DNA of 64,000 nt from Marsupella aquatica (GCA_973895155.1 OZ316894.1:15430699-15494698), one strand, 5' to 3'; positions 2,667 to 51,991 are shown, counted from the first letter of the stretch. The notes: a model not told the origin generated them from the letters alone. Numbers and translations are program-made.

Positions 2667-2971
2667 CCCTAAACTCTCATAGTGCCTTTGATCGTCGGCG
2701 TTCAGACCAAGTGCCTGTAGTTCATGATAGCGGGGACTTCATTCCTGTGACAAGGGTAGATGCATTTGCTGAAGGAGGTGAATTTAGAGATGCAGATACC
2801 AACAGTGTGCCTATGCCATGAGTAATGTGAATTGTTTGCATGGACAATAGTGAGGGGATGTGTAATAAAGTAATTCTGAAGCAACACAGATGTATGGATG
2901 GATGCTGGTGATTGTGGTTACATTGTATTATATGGGGTGACCATAGATGACATGTTTTTGTGGTCTAGTAG

Positions 2972-6674: not shown

Positions 6675-6823
6675 TGTTGTAACCCGAGTTAACTCTAGCC
6701 TAACTAAGGTTAGACCTACCACAGTTGGTTAAGACTAACCGCCTAACTACCCTACCTGCCTAAGGGACTATATGTATTGGAAGAGGAATGAATAAAGGAG
6801 TTAGTTGTTGATGAGCTACAACA
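6675..6823 (+). repeat. Copia 5' LTR (149 bp)
   Basis: TGTTGTA...TACAACA inverted termini; near-identical to 12285-12419. Confidence 0.95.
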
Positions 6824-6837
6824 CGTTATCAGCACGA
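6824..6837 (+). promoter_or_regulatory. Primer binding site complementary to the anticodon arm of tRNA-Ile (half-tRNA priming)
   Basis: CGTTATCAGCACGA directly after the LTR; its reverse complement TCGTGCTGATAACG matches the plant tRNA-Ile anticodon stem-loop as recalled. Confidence 0.75.
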
Positions 6838-7139
6838 TGTCTGCAACGAGAATTTTTTTTTCAAACAAGCTTCAGAGGGACATTCATGCCAAGGCGATTG
6901 ATTCAGCACCATAGAAACTAATTTTTCGGGCAGCAGATCGATCGGGAGTGGTATAATTTGACCACGATTCCACGGATTGGGATTTGAGGGGGCTGACAAT
7001 AGAAGAAGCGGAGGCAGACCCAGGAATTCAACTTGAGAGACAACGACTCAAGAAGGGACATAGCCCCACATCATCACTCAGTCAAGTGCGAACGGATATA
7101 TTGTTATTATCACAGGATCAATTGACCAATTGATAGAAG

Positions 7140-10100
7140 ATGGCTGTACCCACTAACTCCATCGAGAAACTCCTATTTCAACCTCTGAGTATAGACGGCG
7201 CAAATTACCTATCCTGGACTCTAGATATTGAGGCCCACCTCGCAGCAAAAGAACTCCAAGACACGATCATTACAGATGCGGGAACTACTCTCCCACAAAA
7301 GGCGAAGGCCTTAATACTAATTCGGCACCATCTATGCGAGCCATTGAAGAAACAATACATGAACGAATTCAATCCCCGGCTACTATGGGATGACCTACAA
7401 TCCCGTTTCGATCACATTCGAACTATCTACCTACCCGCAGCTCGCCACGACTGGATCAATCTGCGCGTCCAAGACTACAAGACGGTCGCAGATTATAACA
7501 GTGAGCTATTCAGGATCATCGCACAACTGGCCATCTGCGGCCAACCAATAAACGATGCAGAGCAGATCGAAAAAACACTGTCAACTCTTCATTCTTCAAA
7601 CCTTATCCTCTCTACACAATACAGGAATATGGCCTTTACCAAATACTCCGAACTAATTGCGCATATGCTGCTGGCTGAAAAGCACCAGCTCCTACTACTA
7701 CAAAATTCGCAGAAACGCCCACCGGGGACCCTCCCGTCCACATCAGCTCCCGAGACCAACTACGCCACACCACAGAGGGGAGAATCAAGAAACTATCGAG
7801 GCCGCGCAGGCACCAGGGGACGCAGCCCGAATAGGGGTCGAAGCAATAACTTTCAACGAGGCGGCAGAGGGAATTTCCACCGAGGACGCGGCCAAGGCAG
7901 ATCGAGATACAACGGCAGGAGCTCGTGGAACACCTGGACGAGAGAGAACAATAATCAGAATCGCACGAAGTTCAACGAGGACCAGCACAACCAACGAGAT
8001 ATGACCACCAACCCCCCTCTCTGTTTTCGCTGTGGAACTAAAGGGCACATTCAGAAACACTGCAGAGCACCTTCACATCTAGTAGCCCTTTATAAGAAAA
8101 GCATGAACACAAACGCACCTGAAACATATGGCACTTTCATGGACTCCGCTGAGATCCTTCCCGAGATCAACATGATTATAAGGAACCACACAAAGAACCC
8201 AAACAATCCTCACTCATGTATAGTCGATAGTGGGACCTCACATTCAATTCTGAAAAATAAGGAATACTTTACCCACATAACCCCATCACAGCGAAAGGTC
8301 ACCACCATAATGGGCCAACATCAGTTAGAGGAGGGCTACGGACCTGCAACCGTCACATTACCACAAGGCACAGTGATAAAGATACACTCTGCCATATACG
8401 CACCCAAAGCCACCAGGAACCTCCTAAGTGTTGGAGACATAAGAGCCAACGATCTGCATATCCAAACTGGGACTTCCAACAAACTCGAAGTCCTACATAT
8501 CACATCCAAGACTCCACAGAACAATGGGATCCTGGAAACACTAAAAGCCCATCACCCCGGCTTTTATACTACCAACATACACAGCTTCCATACCGAGCCA
8601 GAGAATCAAAAGCCACAAAACCCCATCACAGAGATCTGGCACAGGAGACTTGGCCACCCGGGCCTTAACATGTTCCAGAGAATCGTTAAACAGACCAAGG
8701 GCATACCGCCTACAGTACACCCCACATCTATGCTCGGACCATGCCTTGCCTGTTCACAAGGTAAACTGATAATAAGGCCCTCACCAACCCCACCTGGAAC
8801 CAGAATCCCCAACTTTCTGGAACGGATCCACGCAGATGTATGTGGACCGATCGACCCCCCTAGTGGCCCATTCCGCTTTTACCTAGCAGTAATAGATGCC
8901 TCAACTAAATGGTCCCAAATCTCACTCCTATCCACAAGAAATCTAGTTTTCCCTCGCTTACTGGCTCACATCTTGAAACTAAGAGCACAATTCCCGGATA
9001 ACCAGATCCAGACAATCAGAGTGGACAATGCAGGGGAATTTACCTCCAAAACCTTTGAAGACTTTTGCACTGCTACAGGCATAGACGTACAGTACCCCGT
9101 CCCCCACGTCCACTTCCAAAACGGGACAGCGGAATCGTTGATAAAACGCCTCCAAATAATTGCCAGACCAATACTGATGCAGAGCAACCTCCCCACAACC
9201 GCATGGGGACATGCCATCCTACACTCTGCCACACTACTCAGTTACAGACCGTCAGCATACAACTCAAGCTCACCACACACTCTGGCACTCGGCACCATCC
9301 CCAACATAACTCACCTTCGAACCTTTGGCTGCCAAGTAATGGTACCAATACTGGGCCCCAAACGAACCAAAATGGGCCCTCAGCGGCAAGCAGGAATATA
9401 CATTGGATGTGATTCCACATCCATCATTCGATACCTGGAACCCACCACAGCCGACGTTTTTAAGGCCCGATTCAGCGACTGCCACTTCTATGAAACTACA
9501 TTTCCAAAACTACAAACAAGACAGGAAACAGATAGCGACAAATCTCTCACCTGGCAAATCCAATCTGCATTTTGGCAGGATCCCCGAACTAGCCAATCTG
9601 ACACGGAAGTTAAAAGAATACTCCACCTCACAAACCTGATAGAACACCTACCAGACTCTTTTGCAGATGCCGCAAAAATAACCCGATCACACATACCGGC
9701 AGCAAACACACCTTCGCGCATACAGATGGACATCCAACCGGCAACTGTAACCTCACCACGAGCAAAGCGGGGCCGCCCCCTAGGAGCTACAGACAAACAA
9801 CCCAGACAAAGGAAAGCAGCACCTCCAAGAGCTCCATCACCACATTCAGAACTGCCAACCCCTCAGACCACCACACCAGAAGATAACGACGAGATCGCTA
9901 TCAATTATGGAAGCACAGGGCACATATGGGACAGAACACACACAACAATAGATGATAAATTCGCGTTCCATATATCCCAACAAATAGACGAAGACTCACA
10001 TGATCCAAAGACAATCCGGGAAGCACAAACCCACTCAGACTGGCCCGAGTGGGAAAAAGCAATTAACCTAGAACTAGACTCCCTTATATCTCGCCATGTC

Positions 10101-11750
10101 TTCGGCCCCATCACTCCAGCAGCACCAGGCATTCACCTCACAGGCTGCAGATGGACCTTTGTGAAGAAACGGAATGCACAGGGGGAAGTAGTCAGACATA
10201 AGGCCCGACTAGTAGCAAAGGGCTTTACCCAAATCCCGGGCCGTGACTACGACCTCACGTACTCCCCAGTGATGGACGCCATCACTTACCGCTACCTAAT
10301 CACCTTTTCACAGTACCACAACTTATCCATGCACCAACTGGACATAGTGACGGCATACTTATATGGGCACCTGGACACAGTTATACACATGGAAGCACCA
10401 CCCGAGTTGATACAACGTGTGGAACACCACTGCCAGGGGGAGCAGACACCCATGAGACTAGATCACACTGAGAAAAGCAAATTCGATCACACCAATGAGG
10501 CAGTACTACATACAATAGCCAAATCAATTGCACTAAAAGCTTCTTCAAAGCAAATGCTCACCAAGCAAACTCGTTTTGCAGTGCAAGTCCTTCGCTCCAT
10601 GTATGGCCTGAAACAGAGCGGCCTAACTTGGTATAAGAGATTTAAATCTGAAATGTTAACCATGGGATTTAAAAATTCAGATATCACACCTTGCATATTC
10701 CTCAAGCAGGAAGGACGTGAAGTTATAATCATTGCAATATATGTGGATGACCTGAACTTATTCGGGACCAGCCGAATCATGCTGGAAACTATCCAATTAC
10801 TGAAAAAGGCATTTGAGGTGCGAGACTTGGGACAGACTACTTTCTGCCTCGGCCTACAATTCGAACATCTGCCAAATGGAATCCTACTGCACCAATCTAC
10901 TTATACAAGAAAAATACTGAAGCAATTCAATATGCATCAGTCCAAACCAGTCAAATCCCCAATGGACATTCGCTCATTGGATATGGACAAGGACATTTTC
11001 CGGAAGAGGAACGAGAACGAGCCACTACTTGGCTCAGACAAACCATACCTATCTGCAATAGGGGTCCTGATGTTCCTCGCTAACCAGACAAGACCCGATC
11101 TGGCATTCTCAGTGAACCTACTGGCACGCCATAGCGCAACGCCAACCATAAGACACTGGAACGGCATTAAAAGAATCTTCAGATACTTAAGAGGCACGAC
11201 AGACCTCGGCTTATTCTACCCCAAGCATGATACTTACTTACTTACCGGGTACGCGGATGCAGGATACCTGTCGGACCCCGCAGATGCGAAATCACAGACA
11301 GGGTATGTGTTCCTGATGGGCAATACGGCCATCTCATGGAGGAGCAACAAGCAAACATTGACCACAACCTCGTCAAACCACTCCGAAATAATCGCATTAT
11401 ACGAGGCGAGCCGGGAATGCATATGGCTACGCAATGTGATCAACCACATACACGAAAACACAGGCATACCGAGATTGACCACACCCACACAACTCTATGA
11501 AGACAATAGACCGTGTGTCGATCAAATCCAAGCAGGGTTCATCAAGGGAGACAGAACGAAACACATTGCACCTAAGTTTTTCTTTACTCACGAGCAGCAG
11601 AACAAAAGCATCGCAGTTCAGTGGATCTCTAGCGAATCCAACTCTGCAGACATGTTTACGAAAGCACTCCCACCGAATCTACACAACCAGCATACACACT
11701 CGATAGGGATGCGAAGCCTATCTCAACTGCAGACCGGATCGAATCAATAA
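7140..11750 (+). CDS. Copia gag-pol polyprotein (Gag, CCHC knuckle, protease, integrase, RT, RNase H), intact 1536 aa
   Basis: CFRCGTKGHIQKHC; IVDSGTS; WHRRLGHP...CLACSQGK; IHADVCGP; RVDNAGEF; HKARLVAKGFTQ; IYVDDLNL; GYADAGY; TKHIAPKFF. Domain order PR-INT-RT-RH. Confidence 0.97.
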   Translation: MAVPTNSIEKLLFQPLSIDGANYLSWTLDIEAHLAAKELQDTIITDAGTTLPQKAKALILIRHHLCEPLKKQYMNEFNPRLLWDDLQSRFDHIRTIYLPAARHDWINLRVQDYKTVADYNSELFRIIAQLAICGQPINDAEQIEKTLSTLHSSNLILSTQYRNMAFTKYSELIAHMLLAEKHQLLLLQNSQKRPPGTLPSTSAPETNYATPQRGESRNYRGRAGTRGRSPNRGRSNNFQRGGRGNFHRGRGQGRSRYNGRSSWNTWTRENNNQNRTKFNEDQHNQRDMTTNPPLCFRCGTKGHIQKHCRAPSHLVALYKKSMNTNAPETYGTFMDSAEILPEINMIIRNHTKNPNNPHSCIVDSGTSHSILKNKEYFTHITPSQRKVTTIMGQHQLEEGYGPATVTLPQGTVIKIHSAIYAPKATRNLLSVGDIRANDLHIQTGTSNKLEVLHITSKTPQNNGILETLKAHHPGFYTTNIHSFHTEPENQKPQNPITEIWHRRLGHPGLNMFQRIVKQTKGIPPTVHPTSMLGPCLACSQGKLIIRPSPTPPGTRIPNFLERIHADVCGPIDPPSGPFRFYLAVIDASTKWSQISLLSTRNLVFPRLLAHILKLRAQFPDNQIQTIRVDNAGEFTSKTFEDFCTATGIDVQYPVPHVHFQNGTAESLIKRLQIIARPILMQSNLPTTAWGHAILHSATLLSYRPSAYNSSSPHTLALGTIPNITHLRTFGCQVMVPILGPKRTKMGPQRQAGIYIGCDSTSIIRYLEPTTADVFKARFSDCHFYETTFPKLQTRQETDSDKSLTWQIQSAFWQDPRTSQSDTEVKRILHLTNLIEHLPDSFADAAKITRSHIPAANTPSRIQMDIQPATVTSPRAKRGRPLGATDKQPRQRKAAPPRAPSPHSELPTPQTTTPEDNDEIAINYGSTGHIWDRTHTTIDDKFAFHISQQIDEDSHDPKTIREAQTHSDWPEWEKAINLELDSLISRHVFGPITPAAPGIHLTGCRWTFVKKRNAQGEVVRHKARLVAKGFTQIPGRDYDLTYSPVMDAITYRYLITFSQYHNLSMHQLDIVTAYLYGHLDTVIHMEAPPELIQRVEHHCQGEQTPMRLDHTEKSKFDHTNEAVLHTIAKSIALKASSKQMLTKQTRFAVQVLRSMYGLKQSGLTWYKRFKSEMLTMGFKNSDITPCIFLKQEGREVIIIAIYVDDLNLFGTSRIMLETIQLLKKAFEVRDLGQTTFCLGLQFEHLPNGILLHQSTYTRKILKQFNMHQSKPVKSPMDIRSLDMDKDIFRKRNENEPLLGSDKPYLSAIGVLMFLANQTRPDLAFSVNLLARHSATPTIRHWNGIKRIFRYLRGTTDLGLFYPKHDTYLLTGYADAGYLSDPADAKSQTGYVFLMGNTAISWRSNKQTLTTTSSNHSEIIALYEASRECIWLRNVINHIHENTGIPRLTTPTQLYEDNRPCVDQIQAGFIKGDRTKHIAPKFFFTHEQQNKSIAVQWISSESNSADMFTKALPPNLHNQHTHSIGMRSLSQLQTGSNQ

Positions 11751-12269
11751 ACTCGAGACACAATGATCGGAATGCAGACACGACATCACAGGTACGCCAG
11801 GTCACAAAGAATCACTCGGTGAAGCACTTAGAACATGGAGGAGCCGCAACAACGAACCTGGGAGAAACAAGAACCAACATCGATTCGACCATCGACAGTG
11901 AGAAGCTCAACTGGCAACCTTCAGGGGGAGATTCGCCCGACCTCCATCTCCGAATCCACTTACAACGTGAAGCAATCGAAAGCGAATCTTCCCCCACTCG
12001 AACCGAAGAGCTCCCTACTCACAAACGAAACAATCGACCACACAATCCGCAAATACATTAGGGCGTTTACACTTCATTCCTATTACCTACACTAGACTTT
12101 ACAAGTAATTTACCACTAACACAACACAATTACACTTACGAATTACATTTTTAAGAAGGAATGGTAACACTCTTTCCCCCCACAAGAAAGGAGGGGGGGT
12201 TTTAATGAGGTTACATTCCCACCACCTAGAGTAAACTAAATGTGGGTGCAACATTCCTTCCCAAGACCA

Positions 12270-12419
12270 TGTTACACCCAAGGGTTAACTCTAGTCTAAC
12301 TAAGGTTAGACCTACCACAGTTGGTTAAGACTAACCGCCTAACTACCCTACCTGCCTAAGGGACTATATGTATTGGAAGAGGAATGAATAAAGGAGTTAG
12401 TTGTTGATGAGCTACAACA
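12270..12419 (+). repeat. Copia 3' LTR (~150 bp)
   Basis: Matches the 5' LTR except for the first ~15 nt and one substitution; followed by the ATGCC TSD. Confidence 0.9.
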
Positions 12420-17663: not shown

Positions 17664-18725
17664 GGCGGACAACACAAAAGCTTAGAAACCGTTAAGCCAG
17701 GGTCAATCAAGCAATTTAAGGTACATTCCGACGGCGGAACATAGAGCATACCTATGGTATTCATAGAAGTAGACCCAGGCATTGTCGCGAAGACTTAAAG
17801 TTAGGGGCTCCTCGGGCAAACTACGAGTTTCTGGCTGCGATTGGGACAGGCGACAAGCACTTTTCGGAGCAAACTCTCACTCCTTTATATTTTTTACTTT
17901 TCTCACAAAGGTTACAATAGGTGCCCTCAAGTAAGCTTGCCCGCAAGAGTCTGGTAGCTGGCCCTATGGCGGGCCGCTACCTCTAACTTGTCGAGTAGAA
18001 CTCCTCGAGTGACTAACTACTCAAAATCTGACGGAAAAACTATCCTCCTTAGCTCACAAAACCAAAACTTGACTAGCTACTCCACTAGTCTAAAACAACT
18101 TACACAAAACTCGGGCCTGGACCAACGAGGCTCCAAACTCGAGAAATCCCCGCCTAGATCGACGAGGCTCCAAACTTGAGAAATCCCCGCCTGGATCAAA
18201 AACTCCACACCTGGATCCAACACTTGCCTAGAACTCCAAAACCGCCGCACAACAATCGAGTTCCGTAGAACGGAGCGGAAACTCACAGAATGCAACTCAA
18301 CAGATCTCAATAGACAACCGCCAACCTCAATGAGCCGAGGCTCAAGTCTTAAGTAGCATCGAAAACCCAACCATCCAGCCTGAGCCAACTGCCATCAGCA
18401 AGGCTCATCCAAACTCCAAGCCCGATGACTCACCTAAACACCAAACCTGGTGACGACAAGTCACCCAATCACCAAACCTCAATCCATCCAACCAAGCAGC
18501 CCCTTCGAGTCAGCATGCACGCAACCCAACCGGGAGGCCTCGCCCATCATCCCCTATAAAAGCCATTCCTGAGCCGAAATCTTTCGGCACGACAGCGTGC
18601 TTAGCACCGGGTTGGGGGAATAAAGTGCCGTTTGCACATCCCTCTGTGCCCGAAACCTCAATACTAACGGAGTTTATCCCAGCCTAAGCCAAAATCCGCA
18701 TAGGGACAAATCTTTAGGTGTGACA
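17664..18725 (-). mobile_element. Probable partial LTR of another family
   Basis: Minus-strand start TGTCACACC at 18725, short internal duplications (AAACTCGAGAAATCCCCGCCT x2), no coding signal. Confidence 0.4.
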
Positions 18726-19770
18726 ATCCCCTTTGCCCAGGCCTTTTTTGGGGCCCCGACCCCCTTGGTTTACCCTGACCATCTTGGTCTTTCAGGTCCA
18801 GCTTCGTCATGCATGGTCATTATTGTCGGAGGACGTGTAGAGCGTGGTCCCTGCATTCAAGGAAGTTGTTTTGGACAGCCCGGATTGAGTCCAACAAGTG
18901 ATTTCTGATCGCATGCACCGACATACCCTTTCCAACATGCTTTTTGAGGCACCCTCCAATTCAGTTTGGGCATGTATCTTATCTGGTTGGCGCTGGTTTG
19001 GCGGCTTGGCTATTAGCAGCTAGTCCTCTTTGGGCCCCCTTTCATATGAGTCCTTTTATCTTTACCACATCCACGTGCCTTCGGCTGGGTCTTCCTCACC
19101 CTTGCCTCTTGGGTCAGCCCACATGCATCTATGGTGCGCCCCTTGATCGGCAGGGCATTCATATTCTCAGGTGTGGTCATGGTAGTGAGAGGGCTGCAAC
19201 ACACAATGACGCCTAGATGTGGTGGCGGCCATTGCTCGTGACTCTGGGTACCATGTCATGATGGAGTAGAGACATGTGTTACCTCCACGGGATGGGGTTT
19301 CTGATCGTGGTTGGGCAGATTTGGTATTCTCTCATGCTGGAGTTTGTGCCCTTGGGGATGTTGTTGTTGCTGATCCAACTAGTGGGGCCAATGTGGCTTC
19401 TACCGCTTGTGTACCAGGCCATGCCGTTGCGAGGGCAGCTCGACTGGAGGAGGAGGCCTATGCTGTGCGGTACCTTGGGGACCTCTTCTATCCGTTTGTC
19501 TTGGAGATATTTGGGGCGCTACACCCATCCTGACTGTTTCTATGCTCTTGCACAATTCAATACGTCGAGCGGAGGCCCTATTCCCTTGTGTCTATCATCA
19601 CCGCATTCTTTAGACAGAGGGTGTTTGTTGCGCTTCAGCGGGCACAGGCTTTTCTATCCTTTGTAGGGGGAGGTTGTTGGTCTTAGGGCCTCTAGTAGGA
19701 TTCATTTGCTTGACTCTCCCATGCAGTTCACACCGGAACTATATTAGGCTCTTCAGTTTGCTGATCGGTA
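18726..19770 (+). mobile_element. Degraded LINE 3' fragment with restriction-like endonuclease (CRE/R2-type)
   Basis: CLRLGLPHP...CIYGAPLDRQGIHILRCGHG...HND (zinc knuckle), then ADLV...GDVVVADP...FYPFVLEIFGALHP (RLE motif). Frameshifted. Confidence 0.75.
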
Positions 19771-20329
19771 GGCTTTGGGGTCCTCATTTTGGGGTTTGCT
19801 GTAATTCTTTGTTTCTTTGATGTCTTGCCTTTCTTGGCCCCTTGGTTGTCCCCCCTTCATTGGGTCTTTTGCTTGAGGGATCATGTCTCCCTGTTGGGAG
19901 CCCTCTGTTTTCTGGGATATACTGCAATATCGGTATATCTGCCAGACGGTATAGAGGCTGGCAAAGGAAGACTATACCAGCCAGGCCAGATACTCTACAA
20001 GGTATCACCAAAATTGATGTGTTAGGCACGGTATTCCAATAAGTTACGTGAACCGGGTGGCAATACCTTGCAGTATCCCTGTCCAACACTGCGATACCTT
20101 ATCGGGATAGTATAACGGCCCAACACTGGTCAGGACCAGCCATCCCTATCAGTGATTACCGGCCAAGTATCAACATAGGGGTCCAATCCAGGTTGCAGTG
20201 CGACGGGAAATTAGAACTTATTGTTTGTCTCTACACATGATGACATGAAACCGCATTGATGTTTGTGTCCCCGGTTTGGACTTGCCTGGCAAATAGGCCG
20301 TTTTAAGGCCGTCAACCGGCAAGCCGACA

Positions 20330-21012
20330 CCCGGTCTCTCCCGGTCGTCATCATCCAGTCCCGGCCCGAGTAAATCCGGTCCCGGCCTGAGTACTCCCGG
20401 TCCTCTTCCCTCCCGGCCCCGGACCCTAAACTTCCCCCGGCCCGGACCCTTCACGAGGGGCCCGGACCCTAACGCCCCCCCCGGCCCGGACCTTCACCCT
20501 CCCGGCCCGGACCCTAAAGCCCCCCCGGACCCTAAAGCCCTCCCGGCCCGGACCCTAAAGGCCCCCGCCCGGCCCGGACCCTAAAGCGCCCCCCCCCGGC
20601 CCGGACCCCCCCTCCCGGCCCTAAAGCCCCCCCTCCCGGCCCGGACCCTAAAGCTCCCCCCCCCCTCCCGCCTCGGACCCTAAAGCCCCCCCGGCCCGGA
20701 CCCTAAAGCTCCCCCCCTCCCGCCCCGGACTCTAAAGCCCCCCCGGCCCGGACCCCCCCCCTCCCGGCCCTAAAGCCCCCCCTCCCGGCCTGGACCCTAA
20801 AGCCCCCCCCTCCGCCCCGGTCCCTAAAGCCACCCCGGCCCGGCCCGGCCCACCCCCGCCCGACCCGGGCCCACCATGAGGGACCGGGCCGGGCCGGGCC
20901 GGGGGGGCTTTAGGGTTAGGTCGCGCGAGGAGGGCAGCCGCCGGGGGAGATCGGGCTCGGCCACCCGGGGTCGGCTCGCGAGGTGGGGTGGGGGGGGGAG
21001 ACCGGGACCGGG
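20330..21012. repeat. Left subterminal GC-rich array (unit ~CCGGCCCGGACCCTAAAGCCCCC)
   Basis: Roughly a dozen degenerate tandem units visible. Confidence 0.9.
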
Positions 21013-21014
21013 GC

Positions 21015-21101
21015 TATAAAGTGAGGAGGTCTCCTCACTTTCTCTCATTACTAACTTCTCAACTAAGTTTGCTTGTTGTGTAGGAGAGGCCTTTGGTAAG
21101 T
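21015..21101 (+). promoter_or_regulatory. Putative TATA box and non-coding first exon ending at a GTAAGT donor
   Basis: TATAAA ~21015 immediately after the GC array; CT-rich leader; TTG/GTAAGT at 21096 followed by T-rich intron-like sequence. Confidence 0.5.
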
Positions 21102-21813
21102 TTTTCTTGCTTTTGCTTATGTTTTGTTTAGTTTTGAGTTTAGTTCACTAGTTTTTGAATTGTTTTGAGTCTTTTTTTTGCTATGCTTTGCCATGTATGA
21201 CTTTAACATTTAGTTTTAATTTGGAGGGATATTAGTGTTCTCACGTATGCGCATGCTTGGAGCTTATGCTTGGCATGTGGTATTTCGTATGAGAGAACCT
21301 AATATTACCTTAATAGTTTAGTGTGATTTGTGAATTGAGTGGAGTATTTTCTAGGATAGAGATTTTCATGTACGCATGCTTGGAGTTTCCGCTCGGCATG
21401 TGGTACTCTGCATGGATATCTCGATTCCTTGTAAATATTTCCACAACATTTACAAATGACATCTAAACTATAGGTTTCACATAGATTGGAATAGGAATGT
21501 AACAACTTGAAGGAAAAGACATCTTTTGTGCGCATGCTTGGAGTTTCGGCTTGGCATGTGGTATTTCACATAGTTGTCTTTCCCTTTCATCGTTGTTACT
21601 TTCAAAGTACTAAACAAACGAATAAAAAATTGAACAAATATTAAAATTTCATTGCTTTGGTATTATTGGTACCAACACAAAGTGTGAAATGACATTTCAG
21701 GATTGTTGATCCAGCTTTATTGTACTTGCATCATCCATACCCTCGGCAAGCAGCCAACACACTCCGTAAGCGCCTATTCTTTGTCCTACAACTTGTTGTG
21801 GTTACTTGAGAAC

Positions 21814-23472
21814 ATGGCCGCTGCAAATGTGAGTGTAGAGTATATGAAACTTTTTGAGGCAATGAAGACCATGCTAAACGAAGGATATCAACCAGATCCT
21901 CATGCCCTCAATGCTCTACGGAATGCTCACAAAACCTTAGAAATTTGTAAACATGGCAAAACCTTAGGGAAACGGAAACATAGAGGAGGAGCAATTGGTG
22001 CTGCATTGAAAGAGAGAAGGCAACATGTGTTAGTTGCAATTTGGAAAAAGATTCTATATCCCTACACTTTGCCAGCACAGTATGAGCAGGATGGCTTTGA
22101 GAGGAAGTATGCTATGCATGGAGCAGAGGGTTACAAAAACCTTTTAAATGACATGGGACGTTGCATGCGTGAGACTGTGGAGAAAGAAGAGGACATGACC
22201 CGAGATGAAATTGCTGCCTTAATAAGTGATTTTGAGAAGCCAGGTGGATTTGTTGAACATTTGGCGTTGAACTTTGCGGTAAATCTTTGGGACAAGTTGG
22301 AATCCAATTTGGATGAGGCTGGGTCCGTCATGCTTGGAGTTCCTGGGCTATACACACATAGAAGAGATTTGCTAGCTAAATGGAGTAAAGAGTTAGCAAT
22401 GGCCAAATCGGAGAGTAATGTCAAATATGCGAGCAAGGTCGTGCAGTTTGGAGAGATTGGCGTGGAGGTTGCAGATAGAGGAACGTGTCCATCACGAGTT
22501 GTTCCCATGGTCAGGAGTATTCATTTCTTGAGGAGGGAGCAAGTATCAAATTTGCATCGCATTGGAAGTGGCATCCAAGGACATGTGTTCATATGTCATA
22601 TATTGGATTGCCCATTGATTCCTCGAAATGCAACATTGGTTGCAAAATGATTTAAGGATGGAGACCGGCACAAGAGACGAACAGATGCCTTACAAGAAGT
22701 GCTCATGAGAGGTTTGAATCACAAAGGAATAATTGGGGCCTTGGCAATGACTATCGAAGATCCACCAAAACTTATCTATGACCATTACAATGGAGGTGAC
22801 TTGGGAAGCTTCATAGATAAGTGTGGGAAATGGAGTAAGAGCAAAGGGAAGACCCAATCCACTTCTGAGGTTGATGTGACATTCATATCCGAAAAGAAAC
22901 TCTTTTTGAAACATCGTTTGGGGATTGCTATGGCTCTATTGGAGACCTTGCAATATTTGCATGCACACGACCGTTTCCATTGTGATCTTCATTTTGGGAA
23001 CATCCTTCTTCACTTTGATCACGAGGATGATTTGGCAATTAGAGTTTATGTAGGAATATGTGATTTTGGGTTGTCCAAACACAAGTCACAATGCACATTA
23101 CCACAAAATTGAATGTGGCCCACCTCTACAGAGAAAGCAGTTGCGTATCAAAAACAATATCCACAATTAGCGCCTAAGCTAGTTCGTTCCGATCCAGCAG
23201 AGTACAGTCAAGCAACTGACATATATGCTTTGGGCAATGTCTTTGAGACATTACTCACAGAAAATTGGGATGGAATGATCCCAATGACACGATATTTGAA
23301 TAGGGGTTGGAATGCTAGAGAGCATGGCCCTAAATTGGATATTATGATACGTGACATGATGGCCATTGATGTCAAGAAAAGAATGGATTGTGTTCATTGG
23401 AGTTTGAAAATGATGAGGATATTCCAAGATTGTAGATTAGTTCAGCACAATAGTCCTTATCTAAGAGATTAG
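21814..23472 (+). pseudogene. Protein kinase cargo gene (~550 aa) with an unknown N-terminal domain; two in-frame TGA stops
   Basis: ORFs 21703, 22699 and 23113 share one frame. IGSGIQGHV (Gly loop), LVAK, HKGII, YNGGDL, HCDLHFGNILL (catalytic loop), ICDFGLSK, LAPKL, TDIYALG. Confidence 0.88.
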
Positions 23473-23656
23473 GGATTTCATAGTTTCATCGTGAATGACA
23501 ATGATAGATGTCATGAACTATTATCTATTTAATCATGTCATATGAATTAAATGTATTACTCATTTTGCTTCATTGTATTTTGTTATCAATTTTATCTTGA
23601 AGGGTGTATGGTGAATGAATGCTAAAAATGTTTTTGTTATTGTAGAATCTGCAAGG

Positions 23657-25586
23657 ATGGGAAAATGGGATTTAGAATTCGACGAGGAGGAAAAACCTAA
23701 AAAGATTCCATATTTATATTTGCAACCTGCTCAGGATTTACACCTTTGGTCTCAGGATTAATACGCTGAAGAAGATTCTCAACCCATAGACGAGGACATT
23801 GGAATGAGTAGCAATCATGCAGGGCAAAGCATAACCAAAATGGATGAGGACACCAAGGATGTTGAATGGAATATCACAATGCCAAATGTGAAACCTCCTC
23901 ACAATGAATGGCCCATCAACGCCAAAGAATTGGAGATATTAATGCCACGTGTGGAGTTCCAAAAATGGATGAAAATCATTTTTGATGATGAAAATTTATG
24001 GGCCACAAGGTCTTGGATTCAAGAGAAGTACACAATGTCCAAGGTAACACATGTGGAAATTGGCAAGCATTGGCAACAAAGATTTCGAGAGTATGCTCCA
24101 AAGAAAGCGCAAGGCAAAACAAGCTCGGTTTATCCTCCTTTTCTCCGACTCCTAATTGCTGAATTTATTCTCAAGTGGAAGGTGGATTACCGTTGGGAAA
24201 CAGAAGAGGGCAAGATGACTCACTCTGTGCATCAGTCTGTCCTGGACATTGTAGGTTTCAAGAACAACAAAAATACTACAAAAGATATGTCGAGTCAAGC
24301 AACCAAGAAAGGGTCAAAAAGAAAGATACATGATGTGCAAGATATTCATGCACATCAGAAAGATAAGCCGACTGCACTGGAACGACTCGTCACTAAATCT
24401 GAAAGTTTCAGCGCACCAAAACATGTGGACAAAACATCAAACATTGCAGCATCTACAAGTAACAATTTACCAGGAAAGTTCACTAGTATTTTGGATCCAA
24501 AGAAAGAATCATTGAGCATGGAGATTGTGTGCAAGAGTTTGGACACAGAGATTGGTCATTTGATCGAGAACAATCTTCGCACAAAGTTTTGTCTTGACCT
24601 TTGTGAAGCTGGCAGCATTGACTACTACAAGTCAAAGTTGTAAGATAATGTTTTGAAGATGAAAGCAATGGAAAAAATACCCATTCAAAGTGTGACTACC
24701 TCGGAGGTGAAGGAATACAAGGTGCAACTGTACGACAAGATCGATGGAGGAGATCGCAAAGCTCAACAAACAACTTGCCCAAAAGGATGGTCAATGTAGT
24801 CAAATGAAACAAGTTCAAGAGGCAGATAGAGTCATTCAGGATTTGAAGAATCAGGTTGCATCACAAGAGGTGATCATAAGCAATCTGCAAGAGGAGATCG
24901 AGCAAATCAACACTGTTGAGGTGGATGGACAGTCAGATAAGGAAAAATCAAGATGCAAGAACTACAATTATATGAACTTGCAAATGATTGATCCTACGAG
25001 AGAATCTCATCTTTTTCCGGATGTGGAGGAGGATCCAGAAGATATAGAGAAATTTTTTGACAAGTGGAAGACCGATAAAAGTATGGCCTAATTTATTCGA
25101 GAAAATGATGGAAGATGTACTTGGTGCTTGTATCCATGGGGTCCTGAATCTGTTTCCATTTTGGGAACATGCGGTCACTTATGGCATCATGCTTGCTTGT
25201 TTTGGTGGATGAAGAAGAGCCGAAAATGTTGGTGTCAGAAACCATTTCATGAACGAGAGTATGAGCAACGAGGTTTGTTGAAACAAATGCCACCAATGGA
25301 GACACAGCAAGACACTGAAGACATGACTCAAGAGAGTATTGCAATGGCACAGAGCGATTCAAGGCCCATTGACAATTTCACAGTTAATGAATACAACTTG
25401 TCAGATGGTGACTTTCACAATTTGCTATTCAGCGGTAGATTCCAACAGTGGAAGGAATATGCCATGGCCAATCGTCCAACAACAGATGAGCAAAACATGC
25501 AGCGATCTATTCGTCGCCATCGTCGTCGTCAGCAACTGGCAAAGGTGAAAGCAGAAGCGCAAGACAATGAGAACCCAAATGAGTAG
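23657..25586 (+). pseudogene. Cargo gene: unknown N-terminus, coiled coil and RING-H2-like finger; stops and one frameshift
   Basis: ATG 23657 is in frame with ORF 23804. Heptad region EEIAKLNKQLAQKD...IQDLKNQV...LQEEIEQI. Then CTWC-x13-CGHLWHHAC-x10-CWC across ORFs 24744/25128 (same frame). Confidence 0.7.
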
Positions 25587-25698
25587 GTTGCACACACAAT
25601 GTTTAGTATAGCATATTTTATTGCATAGGACATGCACAATCCGGCATAGTATATCATAGTTTGTCGTATAGTACTAGCATGTAATACCTAAACAGATA

Positions 25699-28557
25699 TC
25701 AAGGTTGTGACGAAAAGTGCCTTGTGTTATTGTTCTCATTTTCTTGCAACTGTCGATCAAATTGAAATTGTCTTGTCATCCATTGGACCGGATCTGCGCT
25801 ATGATATTCTTGAAATGCTCCAACACGGGCATGTATGCTTGATGTGTATGGATTTGTCATGTTCTGCCTTTCATACATATTTTGTGTTGGAGAAGCATGT
25901 TGTCCCCACTGTGCATCATCAGGTTGCGCAAACAAAGTTGGTGTTGTTTTCTCAGGACAGAGCTCCGATGCAGCACCTCGTCGTTGAAATAAGTACAAAG
26001 TACTTGCTTGGACATCATTTTGTAGATTCAATGTTGGGTATGTGAAGGATGGGTTTGGTTGGGAAGGCACTACAAAGTTTGCATCAAATGAGTAGTCCTC
26101 GTCATCCTGAATTTGAGACTCATCGATTGTAGGGAACATCATTAAATCCATTTCATCTTCCCATTCTCCGACATCACTTATTTCAGTATCTGGTGGAATA
26201 CGAGTCAACATGTCACTATCAGTGTGTAATGATAATCCTTGCAAAGCCTCATCTGCGTCATCAATTGTATCAAAATCCTCCACGTCATCCTCTCCAAGAG
26301 CCGCACATGTAACACCATGTTGTTGAGTGTGACATCCTTCTATGGAAGTAGGCCTTGGGCCATCATTTGTTGTTGTTCTTTCATCATATCGTCTATACAT
26401 AGACGTATGAGGGTTTTTCACCTTTGTGAGCCCTTTTTGCACCCTCGAATTTGTGAATACAAAAACCAAGTCTTTTGCCCGATCATTGGTCAACCTATTA
26501 CGGCTTTTTGAATGGATAAAGCCGTACGAACTCCAATTTCGTTCGCATGAAGATGCACACATTTGTTGATGCGTGATTCTTCTCGCCATCAATCTTAGCT
26601 CCGCGTAATCAGCTCCATACAAATGCCACTACTCTCCTGGACTTAATTTCCCAATATTTGATTGTGCTCCTCTAATTGCAACCGATGAATTTGGCAAATT
26701 TTTTTGAGCCTCAAATGCCTGCATTTGGATGTCAGAAATAAGTGTCGTCATATCTCGATCATGGTTGATTCCTGCCTTCACCTTGTGTTCTGCATATCTA
26801 CGAATGTAATCATTGAAGCCTCTATACAGTTCTGCATCTCTTGCCACATCTTCATCTTCATCGAAGAAAAATTGAGGATTCAGATATGCTGCTGCTAACA
26901 TGAAATCAGTAGTAAGTGATTTTCGTCGATCCATATACACTTTCATTATCTTTGGTTTTAAGTAATCTGTTACTAATGTACAACCCTCCATGCTCGCCTC
27001 CAGTTTAGCTATTCCTTTTTTCAAGCTCCATTATAGCCAAGGAGACTGTGGTGAAACTCCATCGAATTCTCGCAACATCTTCACCAACGGCAGGAAAAAA
27101 GCAACTGTAGATTTTACTTGAGCCCAAAATGTATCTTGCTGTATCCACGATTTAAGTTCGTCTGCCTTTCCCCTCGTCATATGCCCCTGTGACTTTAGTC
27201 GAACTGGCAGGCGATCACGATAGGATTGCCACTTATCATCAATGACCATTTGTTGTAAAGCTCCTCTTAGCTCCAATGCTCTCTGCGCCATTAAAAAATT
27301 TGTTGCAAATCTCGTTGCATTTGGATTTAACAACTTCCTGTCACCAGATTTCCTCACAAATATTGCAGACAACTTTTGTGATGATGTAACTGCTTTAACT
27401 ATCCATCTCAAGTGCTTAAAAATCATTTTGAATGGATTTTTTTTCCACTCATCTAGCACAACATTCTTGTGGCCACACATGTCTTCTAGCAACAAATTAA
27501 AAACGTGGGCAACACACCAACTCCATGTCACATGCGGATATTTTTTCATGACTATCTCTTCACCTGCTACACGATTTGCAGGCGCCCCATCGGTAACAAT
27601 TTGTATGATGTGATCGGCGCCAATGTCATCTATGTATTTTAACCACATGTCACCAAGATACTTCCCATCTTTCTTGTCAGCTTGTGCAACGTTCCAACTA
27701 TCCAAAAAGAAATCTCCTTTTGAACTCAACAACATGACATTCATCAAAGGTTCCCTTCGGATATTTTCCCATCCATCAGATGAAAGGGAATATCCAAAAG
27801 GTTTTGCCTCCTTCATTGTTTTTGTCATGTCCTTTGTAAGATCAACTCTAGCCTCCTCCAATAATTTCATTCTCAAATTTTGCATACCCGGAAGAGAATA
27901 TCCATTTACAATCCTTTTCGAGGTTTCTGTGACTGCTTCACGAAAGAAAGGATTCTCCGACACATTGAACGGAATACCACTTGAATAAAAAGCTTTGGCC
28001 CACAGCTTATCCAAATGAGCTCTATTTGGAATTTGATAAGCATCCATGATTGGGTTTGCAAAATTTGATGCTCTACTTCGATGACTCATATTTCCATCCT
28101 CATCGAGGTCAACAAAATTTGAGTCTCGAGTTGATGCTTGCGAATTGGAAGATGGGTTATATGACCTACGACCTCTCATGGATAACAAAACATGACTTCC
28201 ATCACTTCGTTTGTACTTTATGGATGGGTCAACCTTTATGACATTGTACATTCTATTGATGTCATTTAAGTCAACAACTCCATATAAGCCTGTGCAAGGT
28301 GGCGCACCTCCTTTGTGTATGTTTCCCATCAAATGTGCTTTTGCTCGTGTTGCATGATGCGTTGTATATTTCTTACAAAATTTGCATCTTCGATATATAC
28401 GATTAATATCATTACATGCTGATGGCGTATCACATCGTTCAAAATATTTCCACACTGGGGAAAAATTTGCACTACGATCTCGATTGTGATTTCCACCGTG
28501 CCTAATAGGAGTAGAATGAGCTGATGAGTTGCCCGACTCATCTTCTTCGGAAGACAT
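25699..28557 (-). pseudogene. hAT transposase (BED finger, DUF659, C-terminal dimerization domain), two in-frame stops
   Basis: VWKYF...CKFC...RAKAHL; SSDGWEN; IVTDGAPAN; WCVAHVFNLLLED; ATRFATNF; AAAYLNP; CASSCERNWSSYGFIHSKSRNRL...AKDLVFV. The three ORFs are in one frame (~950 codons). Confidence 0.93.
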
Positions 28558-29219
28558 GATCGAAAACAAGAACTTTACACACAAAGTGACTTTTTATACG
28601 TCACTAAACATAGTCACTTAATAAAAATTGAATGATTATTTGTTAGTCTTTTGAAGTAACAACAATAAAACGAGAAAAAAAAACTACTGTGAAATATCAC
28701 ACGTCGAGTCAAACTCCAAACATGCGCACAGTGGTTCTCTTTTGTTTTCTGGTTGTTAACATTCCTATCCGACGTATGTGATATCTATAATTTAATGAGC
28801 ATTTGTCGATATAGTGAAAACATATGAGACAATTAGTGATAATCATGTAAAATATCACATGTCAAGCTTTAGCTCCAAACATGCGTACATGAATGTCAAC
28901 ATTGTCGAAATTTGTTTCACGATACCCACAAGTACCACTAAATTGTTAAGGGATAAGAAGAAAATTATTATGCGGATTACCACATGCCGAGTAAAACCTC
29001 CAAGCACGCGCGCACAAAAGTCTTTTCTATCTCTTTACATAGAGTGCTCTACTTTTAGTGAAGTGTGTCTAATGAGAAAAACTCAAAGTTTTATACAATT
29101 TAGAATGAAAAAATGTTCTATATTTAGCGGGGTTGAAATACTAGATAGGCGAGAAATCGTCACAACCCCAAATTAGCAGATATGGCTTATCTCAATTGAG
29201 TTTATCCATAACTCTAAAA

Positions 29220-29850
29220 CCCGGGCTTATCTTCCCTCCTCCCTCCTCCAACCCCTCCCTTCACCCGGGCCGGGCCTCCCTCCTCCCCCCCACCCGGGCC
29301 TCCCTCCACCCTGGCCGGGCCTCCTTCCCCCCCCCCCACCCGGGCCTCCCTCCACCCAGGCCGGCCCTCCTCCCTTCCCCCACCCGGCCCTCGTCCCCCT
29401 CCTCCCCGGGCCCCCCTCCACCCGGGCCGGGCCTCTCCCCCCACCCAGGCCTCCCTCCTCCCTGCTCCCACCCCGAGACCCCTCCCTTCACCCGGGCCGG
29501 GCCTCCCTCCACCCGGGCCGGCCCTCCTCCCTCCCCCCACTCGGGCCTCGTCCTCCTCCCCACCCGGTCTCCTCGCCCCCCCCCACCCGGGCCCCCCTCC
29601 ACCCGGGCCGGGCCTCCTCCCTCCCCCCACCCGGCCTCCTCCCCCCCCCACCCGGGCCCCCCTCCACCCAGGCCGGGCCTCCTCCCTCCCCCCACCCGGG
29701 CCTCCTCCCACCCCCCACCCGGGCCGGGCCTCCTCCCTCCCCCCACCCGAGCCTTCCTCCACCCGGGCCGGGCCGAGATGTAAAGCCGGGGCGTAAAGCC
29801 GGGGCCGGGGCCGGGTGACGAGAGGTAGGGGGGGGGCCGGGCCGGGGAAT
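29220..29850. repeat. Right subterminal GC-rich array (unit ~CCCACCCGGGCCGGGCCTCCT)
   Basis: Many degenerate tandem units; the core CCGGGCCGGG is the reverse complement of the left core CCCGGCCCGG. Confidence 0.9.
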
Positions 29851-30179
29851 AATGATGAATATGCGTCAAATGAGAGCATTTAAGGCCGGCAAATCCCGAG
29901 TTTACGTGCCCGGCAACTCGGCAAGTTGCCCGTCACATCAAACCGGGTTTGTGTCTGCCCCTATATGGAATACCGACATGCAATGTTTAATTTACATTTG
30001 TAGCAGCTCCATACGACTTGCTCTGTGGAGCTATCGGGTTCAGACCCACTCCGGTTTGTCTGGATATTAGAGAACCATCATCTTTGCGCAGCCACAGGCC
30101 ATCACACTAAGTTGTTGTCTACGCTTGTTTCTCGACTGTGTCAGTTGCCCATGTGGAAGCTGTTGCATAGAACTTCCAA

Positions 30180-32120
30180 TATGATATGACCAGTATGTGC
30201 CTACGGAAACAAATCTCTCGTGACTGACCGTGAAATTACAGAGTGCTTTAGGTTTTGGCATTGGGGAAGGTGGCCATCTGATTAAACAGCAGTCCTTCTT
30301 AAGGTCTTCAAGGAGACTACGATTTTCTTCTGCAGCAGGGTTGGCTAAGCTGACGCTCGAAATCAAGCCCCAGATCTTGAGTCGGATCCGTATCGGTACG
30401 GGTGATGATTCTCGTCGGCGTCTTGGTACGAGTAGTAGTGGAGTACTATGCTCTAATGATTCGGATCGTTTGCCACATCGTTCGAGAGACTCCCTTTCCT
30501 TGGCGTGTCAGACAAATCATGCTACGAAGGCTTGCTTTTGTGAATATCCATTCGTCGCAGTCGTTGTGATTTTTCTAGTTATTGCACTGTGCTGAGGTGA
30601 GAAATCTCCGAATTCTCTGACAGTGAGCTGCGGCATTGAAATGGTGTGTGCTAATTAGTTTTGCCAAGATTGGCATATTTTTTTCCGGAGGACACTTCGA
30701 AAACGATCATGTTGTTTCCAAACTGAGTGGTGATGTTAAGTTATTTAATGGTGTGGAGTATTGATGATAGAAGGCAGTCAGTAGAAACAGCAAGAGCCCG
30801 CTGGGCCAGGCGTGCGAGAAGAAGATGCACCCCAGTCCAGGTCAGCAATGGAAGCCAAACATGCGAATGGGCAATCGAAACCTCGTAGAACTTAAGATGC
30901 TGTCCGCTAACTCGCTTCGTTTGCAAATCGTGTTTGGGAAAATGTAATTTCCAATTCCTGGTAATCAATATACGGTTCACATTGAGCTTTGTAAACACCC
31001 TGGTGGGCATATTCAATGTTAATGCTTTGACCTCTATATTCTGAGTTCAAGTGTGTCGCATTGGTAGGTTCTTCTTGTTAGAATCTTTACGCCAAACATG
31101 TTTCAGGCAATTTTAGCAGTAGAGGAGGCTCTCCAGGCCCAGATGCAGGCGGAACTGATGCAGAAAGCGCTTGGTAAGCAGCTCATAGCTTAAGGAGAAG
31201 CTCGTCCGGGAGCTACTCAGGCAAATCGACAGATCGCTGCCCAAACCGAGACAGCAAACCAGGCAACTATTCTTGCGGCGAGGGAGGCTGCTCAAGCGAC
31301 TACCAAAGAGCAAAATGAAGCCACAAGGCAACATCCCATCGACATTCAGTTGCCAAGGAAGCCCCGCAGGAGACAATGGCTGCGATACGAGGTACGGTAC
31401 TGGACAAGGCGTGGATGAATCCCTACATTAAGGACAATGCTCTCTACTGTAGCTACTGGCTCAGAACTTTTGCAGTATGCAAGTAGTGTGTTTACCTGGT
31501 GATATTTAATTCAGTTTTGACACCATAGGTGACCACCGATACCGCAATCGATTTTATGCAAATACCTTGTGAAGTGCTTAGGATACATAGAGCAGTTTGG
31601 CCTTGTCCACGCCTGGCTAGAGCGTGGGGTCTTTTTCGACGCAGTTATATTTGTCGTTTATCAACCTTGGTGGTCATGCCTCGCAAGTGTGATGCCGTTT
31701 TCAAAAAACTTTCGTTGTTTTGTGGTAGTTACTGGGACGATGCGATCAAATCGTTTCTAGGTATGACAATTCGATGTTTATTTTTTAACGTTTTGTTTCC
31801 TCTGTGCTTCGTTTTCCTCTACTCAAACTCCCTAGACAAATCGATCCATTGTTAAATCTGAAGTACTCCTGCGAAACCAAGATAGATTAATGTTGAAATT
31901 GAAGACCAATTTGCTCACGGGCAGGGGCTCCTCAGACATTTTCTCTGGATGTTATCGGACGGGTATGATGATAGTAGTTGAACTTTGAGCAGCGGACTAT
32001 TGTCGAGTGGGGAATTATTTTGCATGCATGCAACAAGGCAATAAGTGAAGCCCAACCTCAAATGCAGGCAGCTGAACGGCTTGCTGTGCTGTGCGCGAGA
32101 CTTGACTCATTTCGAGGTTT
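30180..32120 (+). pseudogene. Possible degraded multi-exon gene of unknown product
   Basis: S/R-rich transit-peptide-like ORF 30230-30595. GC-richer blocks bounded by AG/GT at ~30782-30840, 31108-31391 and 31925-32116, but with stops and no recognisable domain. Confidence 0.3.
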
Positions 32121-39860: not shown

Positions 39861-39995
39861 GGTATGTTCTAAGTCATGAATTGAAATTGGATCCCTGGGA
39901 CGTAGGTGAATTTGATTCTATGAGGGTGGGCGGCCTTTGATTGGTAAAGGAAGTTGAACACCCCGATGTATTTGATGCTCCATGATTAGGCTGAA

Positions 39996-51945: not shown

Positions 51946-51991
51946 CATTTCTTAAGCCGTGAGATATGAAGTTAGAACGGAAGCGTAGGTA

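Follow-up and report, generated by a model that had tools for sequence, protein, structure and literature searches.

The window analysed here, 64,000 nucleotides of Marsupella aquatica DNA (GCA_973895155.1 OZ316894.1:15430699-15494698), contains a DNA transposon of 9,678 bp (9.7 kb) at 20270-29947 that carries a protein kinase gene, a second open reading frame (ORF2) encoding a coiled coil and a RING-H2-like finger, and a transposase gene on the opposite strand (Table 1). Its protein domains, its D/D/E/CxxH residues, an 8-bp target-site duplication and short terminal inverted repeats (TIRs) with subterminal repeats make it a member of the hAT superfamily. The window copy is a decayed member of a repeated family of 9.7-kb hATs, and we consider it highly probable that the anatomy is that of a multi-gene hAT maintained by selection.

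Table 1. Features of the hAT element, with positions counted from the first nucleotide of the window
Feature	Position	Strand	Remarks
Target-site duplication, left	20262..20269	.	8 bp, TTTGTGTC
TIR, left	20270..20278	+	CCCGGTTTG, perfect 9 bp; patchy likeness to right end for ~30 bp further
Subterminal G+C-rich repeats, left	20279..21010	.	GGCCCGG x14, CCCTAAA x13 (counted over 20176-21050)
Predicted left promoter and leader	21015..21700	+	TATAAA 21015, donor GGTAAGT 21095, acceptor TTTCAG/G 21700; motif scan
Non-coding module, left	21249..21618	+	Predicted hairpins 21244-21291, 21367-21414, 21525-21572; upstream of kinase
Protein kinase gene	21814..23472	+	552 aa; 2 in-frame TGA stops in window copy
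ORF2, coiled-coil/RING-H2-like	23657..25586	+	~640 aa; 3 stops and 4-bp insertion near 24739
hAT transposase	28557..25699	-	952 aa, 2 stops; convergent with kinase and ORF2
Non-coding module, right	28639..29011	-	Predicted hairpins 29016-28969, 28891-28844, 28732-28686; upstream of transposase
Subterminal G+C-rich repeats, right	29215..29938	.	GGCCCGG x16, CCCGGGCC x13 (counted over 29150-29963)
TIR, right	29939..29947	-	CAAACCGGG on + strand
Target-site duplication, right	29948..29955	.	8 bp, TTTGTGTC

Genes of the element

The full-length transposase described in an initial annotation of the window is borne out, with Pfam matches to DUF659 (E 2.9e-29) and Dimer_Tnp_hAT (E 3.8e-7) that both exceed the Pfam cut-offs. 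The protein is arranged as a putative BED-like finger, DUF659 and the residues D261, D323, CxxH 348-351 and E672, followed by the dimerisation domain and an acidic tail. The D, D, E and CxxH, which we take to be the catalytic positions, belong to the motifs SSDGW (259), VTDGA (321), CVAH (348) and SCERNWS (670). The N-terminus contains WKYF and CKFC and gives a weak zf-BED match (E 0.31, below the cut-off). A sequence search against solved structures returned nothing for the transposase.

The kinase (Pfam Pkinase, E 5.6e-15) consists of a helical N-terminal domain, residues ~60-200, followed by a kinase domain with GxGxxG at 251-256, K278, E295, HCDLHFGN at 389-396 and DFG at 417-419. It had been described as a kinase of ~550 aa with all core motifs; the length and the kept motifs agree, but the catalytic loop is non-RD (no arginine-aspartate pair) and the APE motif reads APK in the window copy, the E being kept in 8/8 relatives checked. 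The glycine loop, K, E, HxDxHxxN and DFG are present in 8/9 full-length family members, P0176 having DWG and missing two patterns. The residue set of an active eukaryotic protein kinase (ePK) is thus found in the family, and phosphotransfer is predicted.

Eight intact relatives share 44-71% identity with the kinase. A profile search of 1.84 billion proteins returned 18 at E values up to 1e-30, most of them partial, and one kinase cluster contains five members from Calypogeia fissa on four contigs. This liverwort is the source of the only cargo relatives with a species name, which points to a bryophyte host. In scans that required exact short patterns, 0/26 pattern matches in viral contigs and 0/72 in prokaryotic collections encoded a relative; PADLOC matches to the kinase were generic kinase matches. 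A metagenome scan yielded two relatives among 196 pattern matches, the contigs L001 and L002. Comparison of the window kinase with that of L002 gave a ratio of nonsynonymous to synonymous divergence (dN/dS) of about 0.15 (dN 0.337; dS 2.195, near saturation), and with that of L001 dS was saturated. The check for neutral evolution that had been proposed for the cargo, run here for the kinase, therefore shows that the family is under purifying selection between members.

A quick tree built from 97 search hits places 19 core rows on one side of a branch with a Shimodaira-Hasegawa-like approximate likelihood ratio (SH-aLRT) support of 98. This branch sits among other unnamed kinases of like build, apart from leucine-rich repeat (LRR)-receptor and multi-domain kinases. 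The phylogeny suggested in the initial annotation, which was to separate host, viral and transposon kinases, is in this form answered in part: the family is a branch of its own, but the rows are exclusively search hits and include no selected host kinases. Among solved structures, the best sequence match to the kinase has an E value of 4e-8. The predicted local distance difference test (pLDDT) score over residues 70-190 of the helical domain is about 75-92 by block. Fold searches returned kinases exclusively and barely probed this domain. The same tree contains further well-supported groups of unnamed 450-650-aa kinases (P0049, P0056, P0060, P0067, P0069, P0084, P0086 and kin), which have HNDL-x-x-x-N-x-x-x-HF loops, lie on short contigs where checked, and may be further transposon-borne families.

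The coiled-coil/RING-like gene reported earlier is present. It encodes, in order, a conserved N-terminal domain that belongs to no known family, an acidic/basic linker, a coiled coil, the RING-H2-like finger and a conserved C-terminal part. There are eight matches, one of them from Calypogeia fissa; both halves of ORF2 match one intact protein, P0022 (41% over 309 residues and 53% over 212). The finger has eight putative zinc ligands in C3H2C3 order, all common to the three sequences that cover it and all shared with P0022. The ESM Atlas held no usable match for the N-terminal domain, and a sequence search against solved structures gave two weak matches of coiled-coil type. Ubiquitin ligase activity of ORF2 is a prediction only.

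The genes are as tightly packed as previously noted, with gaps of 184 bp between kinase and ORF2 (given before as 185) and 112 bp between ORF2 and transposase. The intronless reading of the coding parts is also upheld: kinase and transposase read through, and ORF2 is colinear with its intact relatives. A possible splice acceptor, TTGTAG, precedes ORF2 and ends at 23645. Decay had been called light, with a few point stops; the stops number two, three and two in kinase, ORF2 and transposase, but the ORF2 frameshift caused by the 4-bp insertion had been missed. This insertion is absent from other copies, and among the differences listed there are copies without the stops at 24641 and 27031.

Boundaries of the element

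Across 720 x 700 positions, a scan found an exact 8-bp direct repeat flanking a perfect 9-bp TIR, at 20270 and 29947. In a control of 2000 random region pairs of the window, 9 bp was reached three times, each time by this same pair, and the next best value was 6. PMC12730594 gives 8 bp as the usual size of hAT duplications. A similar 8-mer, TTTGT(G/C)TC, is also present at 20224, a minor caveat on the duplication.

Contigs from four of seven related sequencing runs were also compared with the window. On the right, a single-copy contig of run X2 (flank depth 53, zero differences) begins at 29918. For an end at 29947, 31-mer branching predicts a start at exactly this position, and for an end at 29963 a start at 29934. 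On the left, a contig of run X1 stops at 20317, closer to the position predicted for an end at 20270 (20299) than to that for one at 20176 (20205). From this branching we infer that the contig breaks mark the element ends. The TAGGGG termini first assigned at 20176 and 29963 were dismissed: the 8 bases outside them are unlike (TATCAACA vs TATGGAAT) and form no target-site duplication. Their 40-base likeness, which exceeds that of 2000/2000 random pairs, remains without explanation and is a caveat on the boundaries; the pair was chosen by eye, and its right member overlaps the true TIR.

The left subterminal repeats are likely a transposase-binding or promoter region. Their 13 copies of CCCTAAA, presumably a plant telomere-like word, lie at 20400-20920 and have no counterpart in the right region. 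Both flanks (18500-20260 and 29956-30217) are themselves high-depth repeats in runs X1-X3, and the element probably landed in a repeat of another kind. In the left flank, the ORF pieces between 18902 and 19666 have no Pfam match and, in our judgement, resemble the end of a long interspersed nuclear element (LINE).

A repeated and linked set of genes

Results on other copies draw on 32 listed contig pieces of about 10,800 and 40 listed differences of 2,373. Kinase, ORF2 and transposase are all repeated: in runs X1-X3 their summed contig depth is 21-216x that of the right flank beyond 30218, a ratio not to be read as copy number, and ORF2 and transposase have depths of similar magnitude. Dispersal of copies may be reflected in the raised depth across the element and in a contig that breaks at its expected right end; a second copy with both flanks was not seen among the pieces listed.

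Linkage is preserved on diverged contigs. On a 1,310-bp contig of X3 (record 18; its two pieces differ at 42 and 110 letters), the end of the RING gene is connected to that of the transposase gene. A 7,334-bp contig of X5 (record 24, organism label C, ~81% alike) carries a kinase piece and a RING piece separated by 2,260 bp, vs 2,285 in the window. Three further leads were set aside: X5 records 23 and 26, which bridge kinase to ORF2 and ORF2 to transposase at ~96% but have a depth of 2 and are possibly stray DNA; a joint of 20454 to 29253 in X1 and X3, a hint of an internally deleted derivative with 21 letters on one side; and an ORF 182 bp past the kinase stop of L002, whose W-x-x-L-acidic start is like that of ORF2 relatives but whose 33 residues have no significant match, so that no linkage is claimed.

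The initial annotation had named a separate nested element as an alternative origin of the cargo. No 8-11-bp duplication with an inverted end of at least 4 bp encloses the kinase, ORF2 or both, and the single match in that search was a 5-bp/6-bp pair of chance size. The evidence supports a multi-gene unit of long standing rather than a random capture of exons.

A duplicated non-coding module with predicted hairpins

Upstream of both the kinase and the transposase lies a 370-nt module that the initial annotation had missed, the two copies sharing 71% identity over 379 nt (E 2e-36). In each of them a 48-nt motif recurs three times with similar spacing, and the kinase of L001 has two full copies and one cut copy upstream. 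The eight full copies share a predicted fold on the sense strand of the genes, in which stems of 6, 8 and 4 bp, counted from the base, alternate with bulges of 6 and 2 nt and end in a small loop. RNAalifold returns the same fold.

Across the eight related copies, 137/144 cells pair and both sides change in 9/18 pairs. In shuffle controls, which are inflated by the relatedness of the copies and by a structure drawn from them, 0-1/500 reached the observed level on four of five measures. Folding energies are -13.7 to -18.8 kcal/mol on the sense strand and -6.1 to -11.5 kcal/mol on the opposite strand. The covariation is strand-specific as well: G·U occupies 32 cells and A·C 0, and the counts become 17 and 0 once the two wobble pairs that never vary are set aside. 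Because a decaying methylated DNA palindrome would yield both G·U and A·C, selection of the motif on one strand appears the better reading.

Rfam gave no hairpin match at gathering level; three weak microRNA matches (E 0.05-0.7) were far below the gathering scores. A covariance model found no hairpins beyond these eight in 71 kb, and none elsewhere in the 64-kb window. By motif scan, the left hairpins fall inside a predicted 604-nt leader intron (21096-21699), no ATG separates its acceptor at 21700 from the kinase start, and the transposase side has a TATAAA at 29095.

The kinase family outside the hAT

In L001, a 547-aa member of the kinase family is followed ~390 bp beyond its stop by a DUF6729 gene (2527-5521; Pfam E 2e-11). 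The second part of this gene is like transposases of the Mutator-like element (MULE)/ISL3 type; its likeness to clusters named MULE transposase, with ESM Atlas scores of 0.91-0.93, is a lead and not an alignment. No RING gene occurs in the 3.6 kb after the L001 kinase; the upstream side is cut off and the contig shows no element end. The ~390-bp gap leaves little room for a nested insertion. A literature search for 'DUF6729' and 'transposon-encoded kinase' matched no papers.

Since the L001 kinase adjoins a DUF6729/MULE-like gene without a RING gene, we regard the kinase as a portable cassette that is exclusive to neither the hAT nor ORF2. As the same hairpins precede it beside a MULE-like transposase, the hairpin-kinase cassette likely moves between transposon superfamilies. 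The proposal of a three-gene unit rather than random exon capture accordingly stands in part: the genes are repeated, linked on diverged contigs and conserved over their full length, the kinase is under selection and shares its upstream module with the transposase, and the search for a nested element around the cargo was negative, but the kinase also occurs outside the hAT. Its occurrence unlinked to hAT ends, which the initial annotation had set against its own proposal, is in this sense partly observed.

Surroundings of the element

Pfam matches elsewhere in the window, to CACTA-type, Copia and Gypsy genes, are those of transposon-rich eukaryotic DNA. A Copia element at 6688-12419, with an unbroken 1,537-aa polyprotein (7137-11750) and 136-bp repeats that are 99% identical, is a young insertion with short long terminal repeats (LTRs). 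Two direct repeats of 4,636 bp (47287-51922 and 58147-62782; 99.5% identical) flank a Gypsy gag-pol at 51989-57978; each holds a long ORF without a Pfam family (1,014 aa at 47348-50392), and the pair represents either coding LTRs of great length or elements arranged in tandem. The DUF4218 and DUF4216 ORFs at 1164-2666 are presumably a CACTA-type transposase remnant. At 41600-42490, between ORFs without a Pfam match (39990-44638), lies an array whose units of ~114 bp match themselves in reverse complement as well.

Proposed function and alternatives

Tentatively, and with less than even confidence, we favour the reading that kinase and RING protein form a self-regulatory, counter-silencing cassette for which the hairpins serve as shared control sites. 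Two transcripts would run inward, one from each element end, in a two-promoter layout that we take to resemble that of MuDR. ORF2, with only 184 bp before it, would be made from the left promoter, either because the leader is spliced to the acceptor of ORF2 itself or because transcription reads through. The hairpins would form in nascent RNA and be bound by an element-encoded protein, most likely through the predicted helical N-terminal domain of the kinase; we favour this domain because L001 has the hairpins together with the kinase but no hAT transposase or RING gene after it. Once recruited, the kinase would phosphorylate, and the RING protein ubiquitylate, either the transposase or host factors of transcription or silencing, and the element's own transcripts would be kept on.

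A more specific version, which we rate as unlikely, is a cassette shared by bryophyte hAT and MULE-like elements in which the kinase would be tethered to hairpins of nascent transcripts for a Tat/TAR- or boxB-like anti-silencing, with the RING protein as an add-on. If this holds, DNA transposons would possess an anti-silencing system that is addressed by RNA and works through phosphorylation, and that could readily serve as a sequence-specific tool.

Several observations weigh against the favoured reading. The catalytic loop HCDLHFGN is non-RD and atypical, the dS behind the kinase ratio is near saturation, and structure models are poor (mean pLDDT 52 and 39). The zf-RING_2 match of ORF2 (E 2.7e-5) scores 21.6-24.8 bits vs the 27.3 needed at the Pfam cut-off, and the last ligand pair, corrected here, is C-x-C (C-W-C in 3/3) and not C-x-x-C, which is why we label ORF2 RING-H2-like and not a member of the RING-H2 E3 ligases. 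The fifth shuffle measure was unexceptional (198/500), the other four share the inflation described above, z-scores of single hairpin copies are only -1.2 to -4.2, and the motif scan found no clear splice donor on the transposase side. None of the pieces listed spans all three genes with both ends. The TIR begins with CC, while hAT TIRs usually begin with (C/T)A.

The same unit could instead act on transposition or on the state of the host cell (transposase turnover, DNA repair, cell cycle), with a factor of the host's splicing or RNA-processing machinery reading the hairpins. All evidence for the unit is in line with this, the left hairpins lie within the predicted leader intron, and a kinase family beside two unrelated transposases suits a general host target. 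A host-wide motif, however, would have no need to travel with the kinase, and the hairpins belong to no Rfam family and occur nowhere else in the window; on balance we think this alternative somewhat improbable.

It is less probable again that a hairpin-kinase element, with or without the RING gene, rides several transposons as a separate selfish passenger or nested element of no use to the hAT. The same kinase family and hairpins do accompany the MULE-like gene of L001, and Kojima 2025 describes the transfer of TET/JBP genes from one transposon family to another as passive (PMC12730594). Such a passenger is at odds with the want of a duplication and inverted end around the cargo, with the module duplicated before the transposase, and with an ORF2 depth comparable in magnitude to that of the transposase.

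Kinase and predicted ligase lie side by side in the same orientation and under selection, and might also be a toxin-antidote pair, in which a kinase harmful to cells is eliminated by the ligase, biasing inheritance in spores or gametophytes. Fungal mobile elements that carry spore-killer genes offer a precedent. We hold this to be a poor prospect: in L001 the kinase is followed by the DUF6729 transposase-like gene with no RING gene in 3.6 kb (upstream cut off), and the hairpins before the transposase are left without explanation.

Recent passive capture of host gene pieces by Pack-type transduplication, with neutral decay, is largely refuted and very improbable: all three genes are broken in the window copy, 14/24 coding differences listed change a residue and a fungal hAT with a captured histone H3 is known (PMC6710886), but the cargo consists of whole genes and not fragments, dN/dS is about 0.15 between family members, and the kinase forms its own branch (19 rows, SH-aLRT 98), far from solved kinases (best E 4e-8), with intact relatives at 44-71%. 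Membership of the Pack-type class is ruled out by the full transposase gene and the full-length cargo under purifying selection.

Comparison with known systems

With the plant DUF659 hATs (Ac/Tam3), the window element shares the DUF659 and dimerisation domains, the DDE and CxxH residues, a short TIR, subterminal repeats and the 8-bp duplication; it differs in its 9.7-kb length, two extra conserved genes on the opposite strand, the duplicated hairpin module and a TIR that starts with CC. The premise of the initial annotation that autonomous hATs encode only a transposase has published exceptions, namely fungal hAT7 elements with TET/JBP genes and a hAT with histone H3. The latter, from Pseudocercospora fijiensis (PMC6710886), likewise has DUF659, is ~9.5 kb long and amplifies a second gene. 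Its cargo consists of inactivated host-gene pieces, whereas that of the window element is a selected, transposon-linked family for which no host orthologue was found.

TET/JBP cargo occurs in fungal hAT7 and ten other lineages and has passed between superfamilies, and an alpha-kinase occurs in IS3EU (Kojima 2025, PMC12730594). These TET+ hAT7 and IS3EU elements of rust fungi are likewise autonomous DNA transposons with a selected accessory enzyme common to superfamilies, and in IS3EU the alpha-kinase gene lies opposite the transposase, giving a three-gene layout similar to that of the window element (PMC12730594). They differ in being fungal, in their TET/JBP dioxygenase cargo, in the 7-bp duplications of hAT7 and in an IS3EU kinase that is an alpha-kinase and not of the ePK fold. 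Identity with TET+ hAT7 is ruled out by the lack of a TET/JBP Pfam match and by a duplication of 8 bp, not 7. The word RING is absent from the text of PMC12730594.

Extra ORFs are also known in Mutator elements, and VANDAL with VANC and MuDR with mudrA and mudrB are, like the window element, autonomous plant DNA transposons that carry them (PMC6446971). VANC acts on repeated motifs in the non-coding regions of its element, and its anti-silencing activity has been demonstrated (PMC5735166). The window element carries repeated non-coding motifs too; in a VANC-type system an element protein would bind them and lower methylation. Differences are the superfamily, repeats that look like RNA structures and not DNA motifs, and an anti-silencing role that is shown for VANC and only presumed here; no VANC- or MURB-type Pfam match is listed for the window proteins.

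The word kinase does not occur in PMC6431247, PMC6839031, PMC6446971 or PMC13547354. In the literature searched, which did not extend to Repbase and most subscription journals, no paper was found on a plant hAT that carries an ePK kinase gene, a RING gene or hairpins of this kind; descriptions of such elements may exist in Repbase or in the supplements of PMC12730594. Some orphan non-RD kinases annotated as liverwort host genes, such as the five-member Calypogeia fissa cluster, may be transposon cargo. Detailed knowledge of how DNA transposons escape silencing exists for few systems (VANC and the TET/JBP cargo of fungi), and a plant hAT that keeps a kinase and a RING gene, with the same predicted RNA structure on both transcripts, offers a candidate mechanism testable in a model bryophyte. 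Cargo in hATs and kinases in DNA transposons both have fungal precedent; on the combination of kinase, RING gene and duplicated hairpin module, the literature searched contained no paper.

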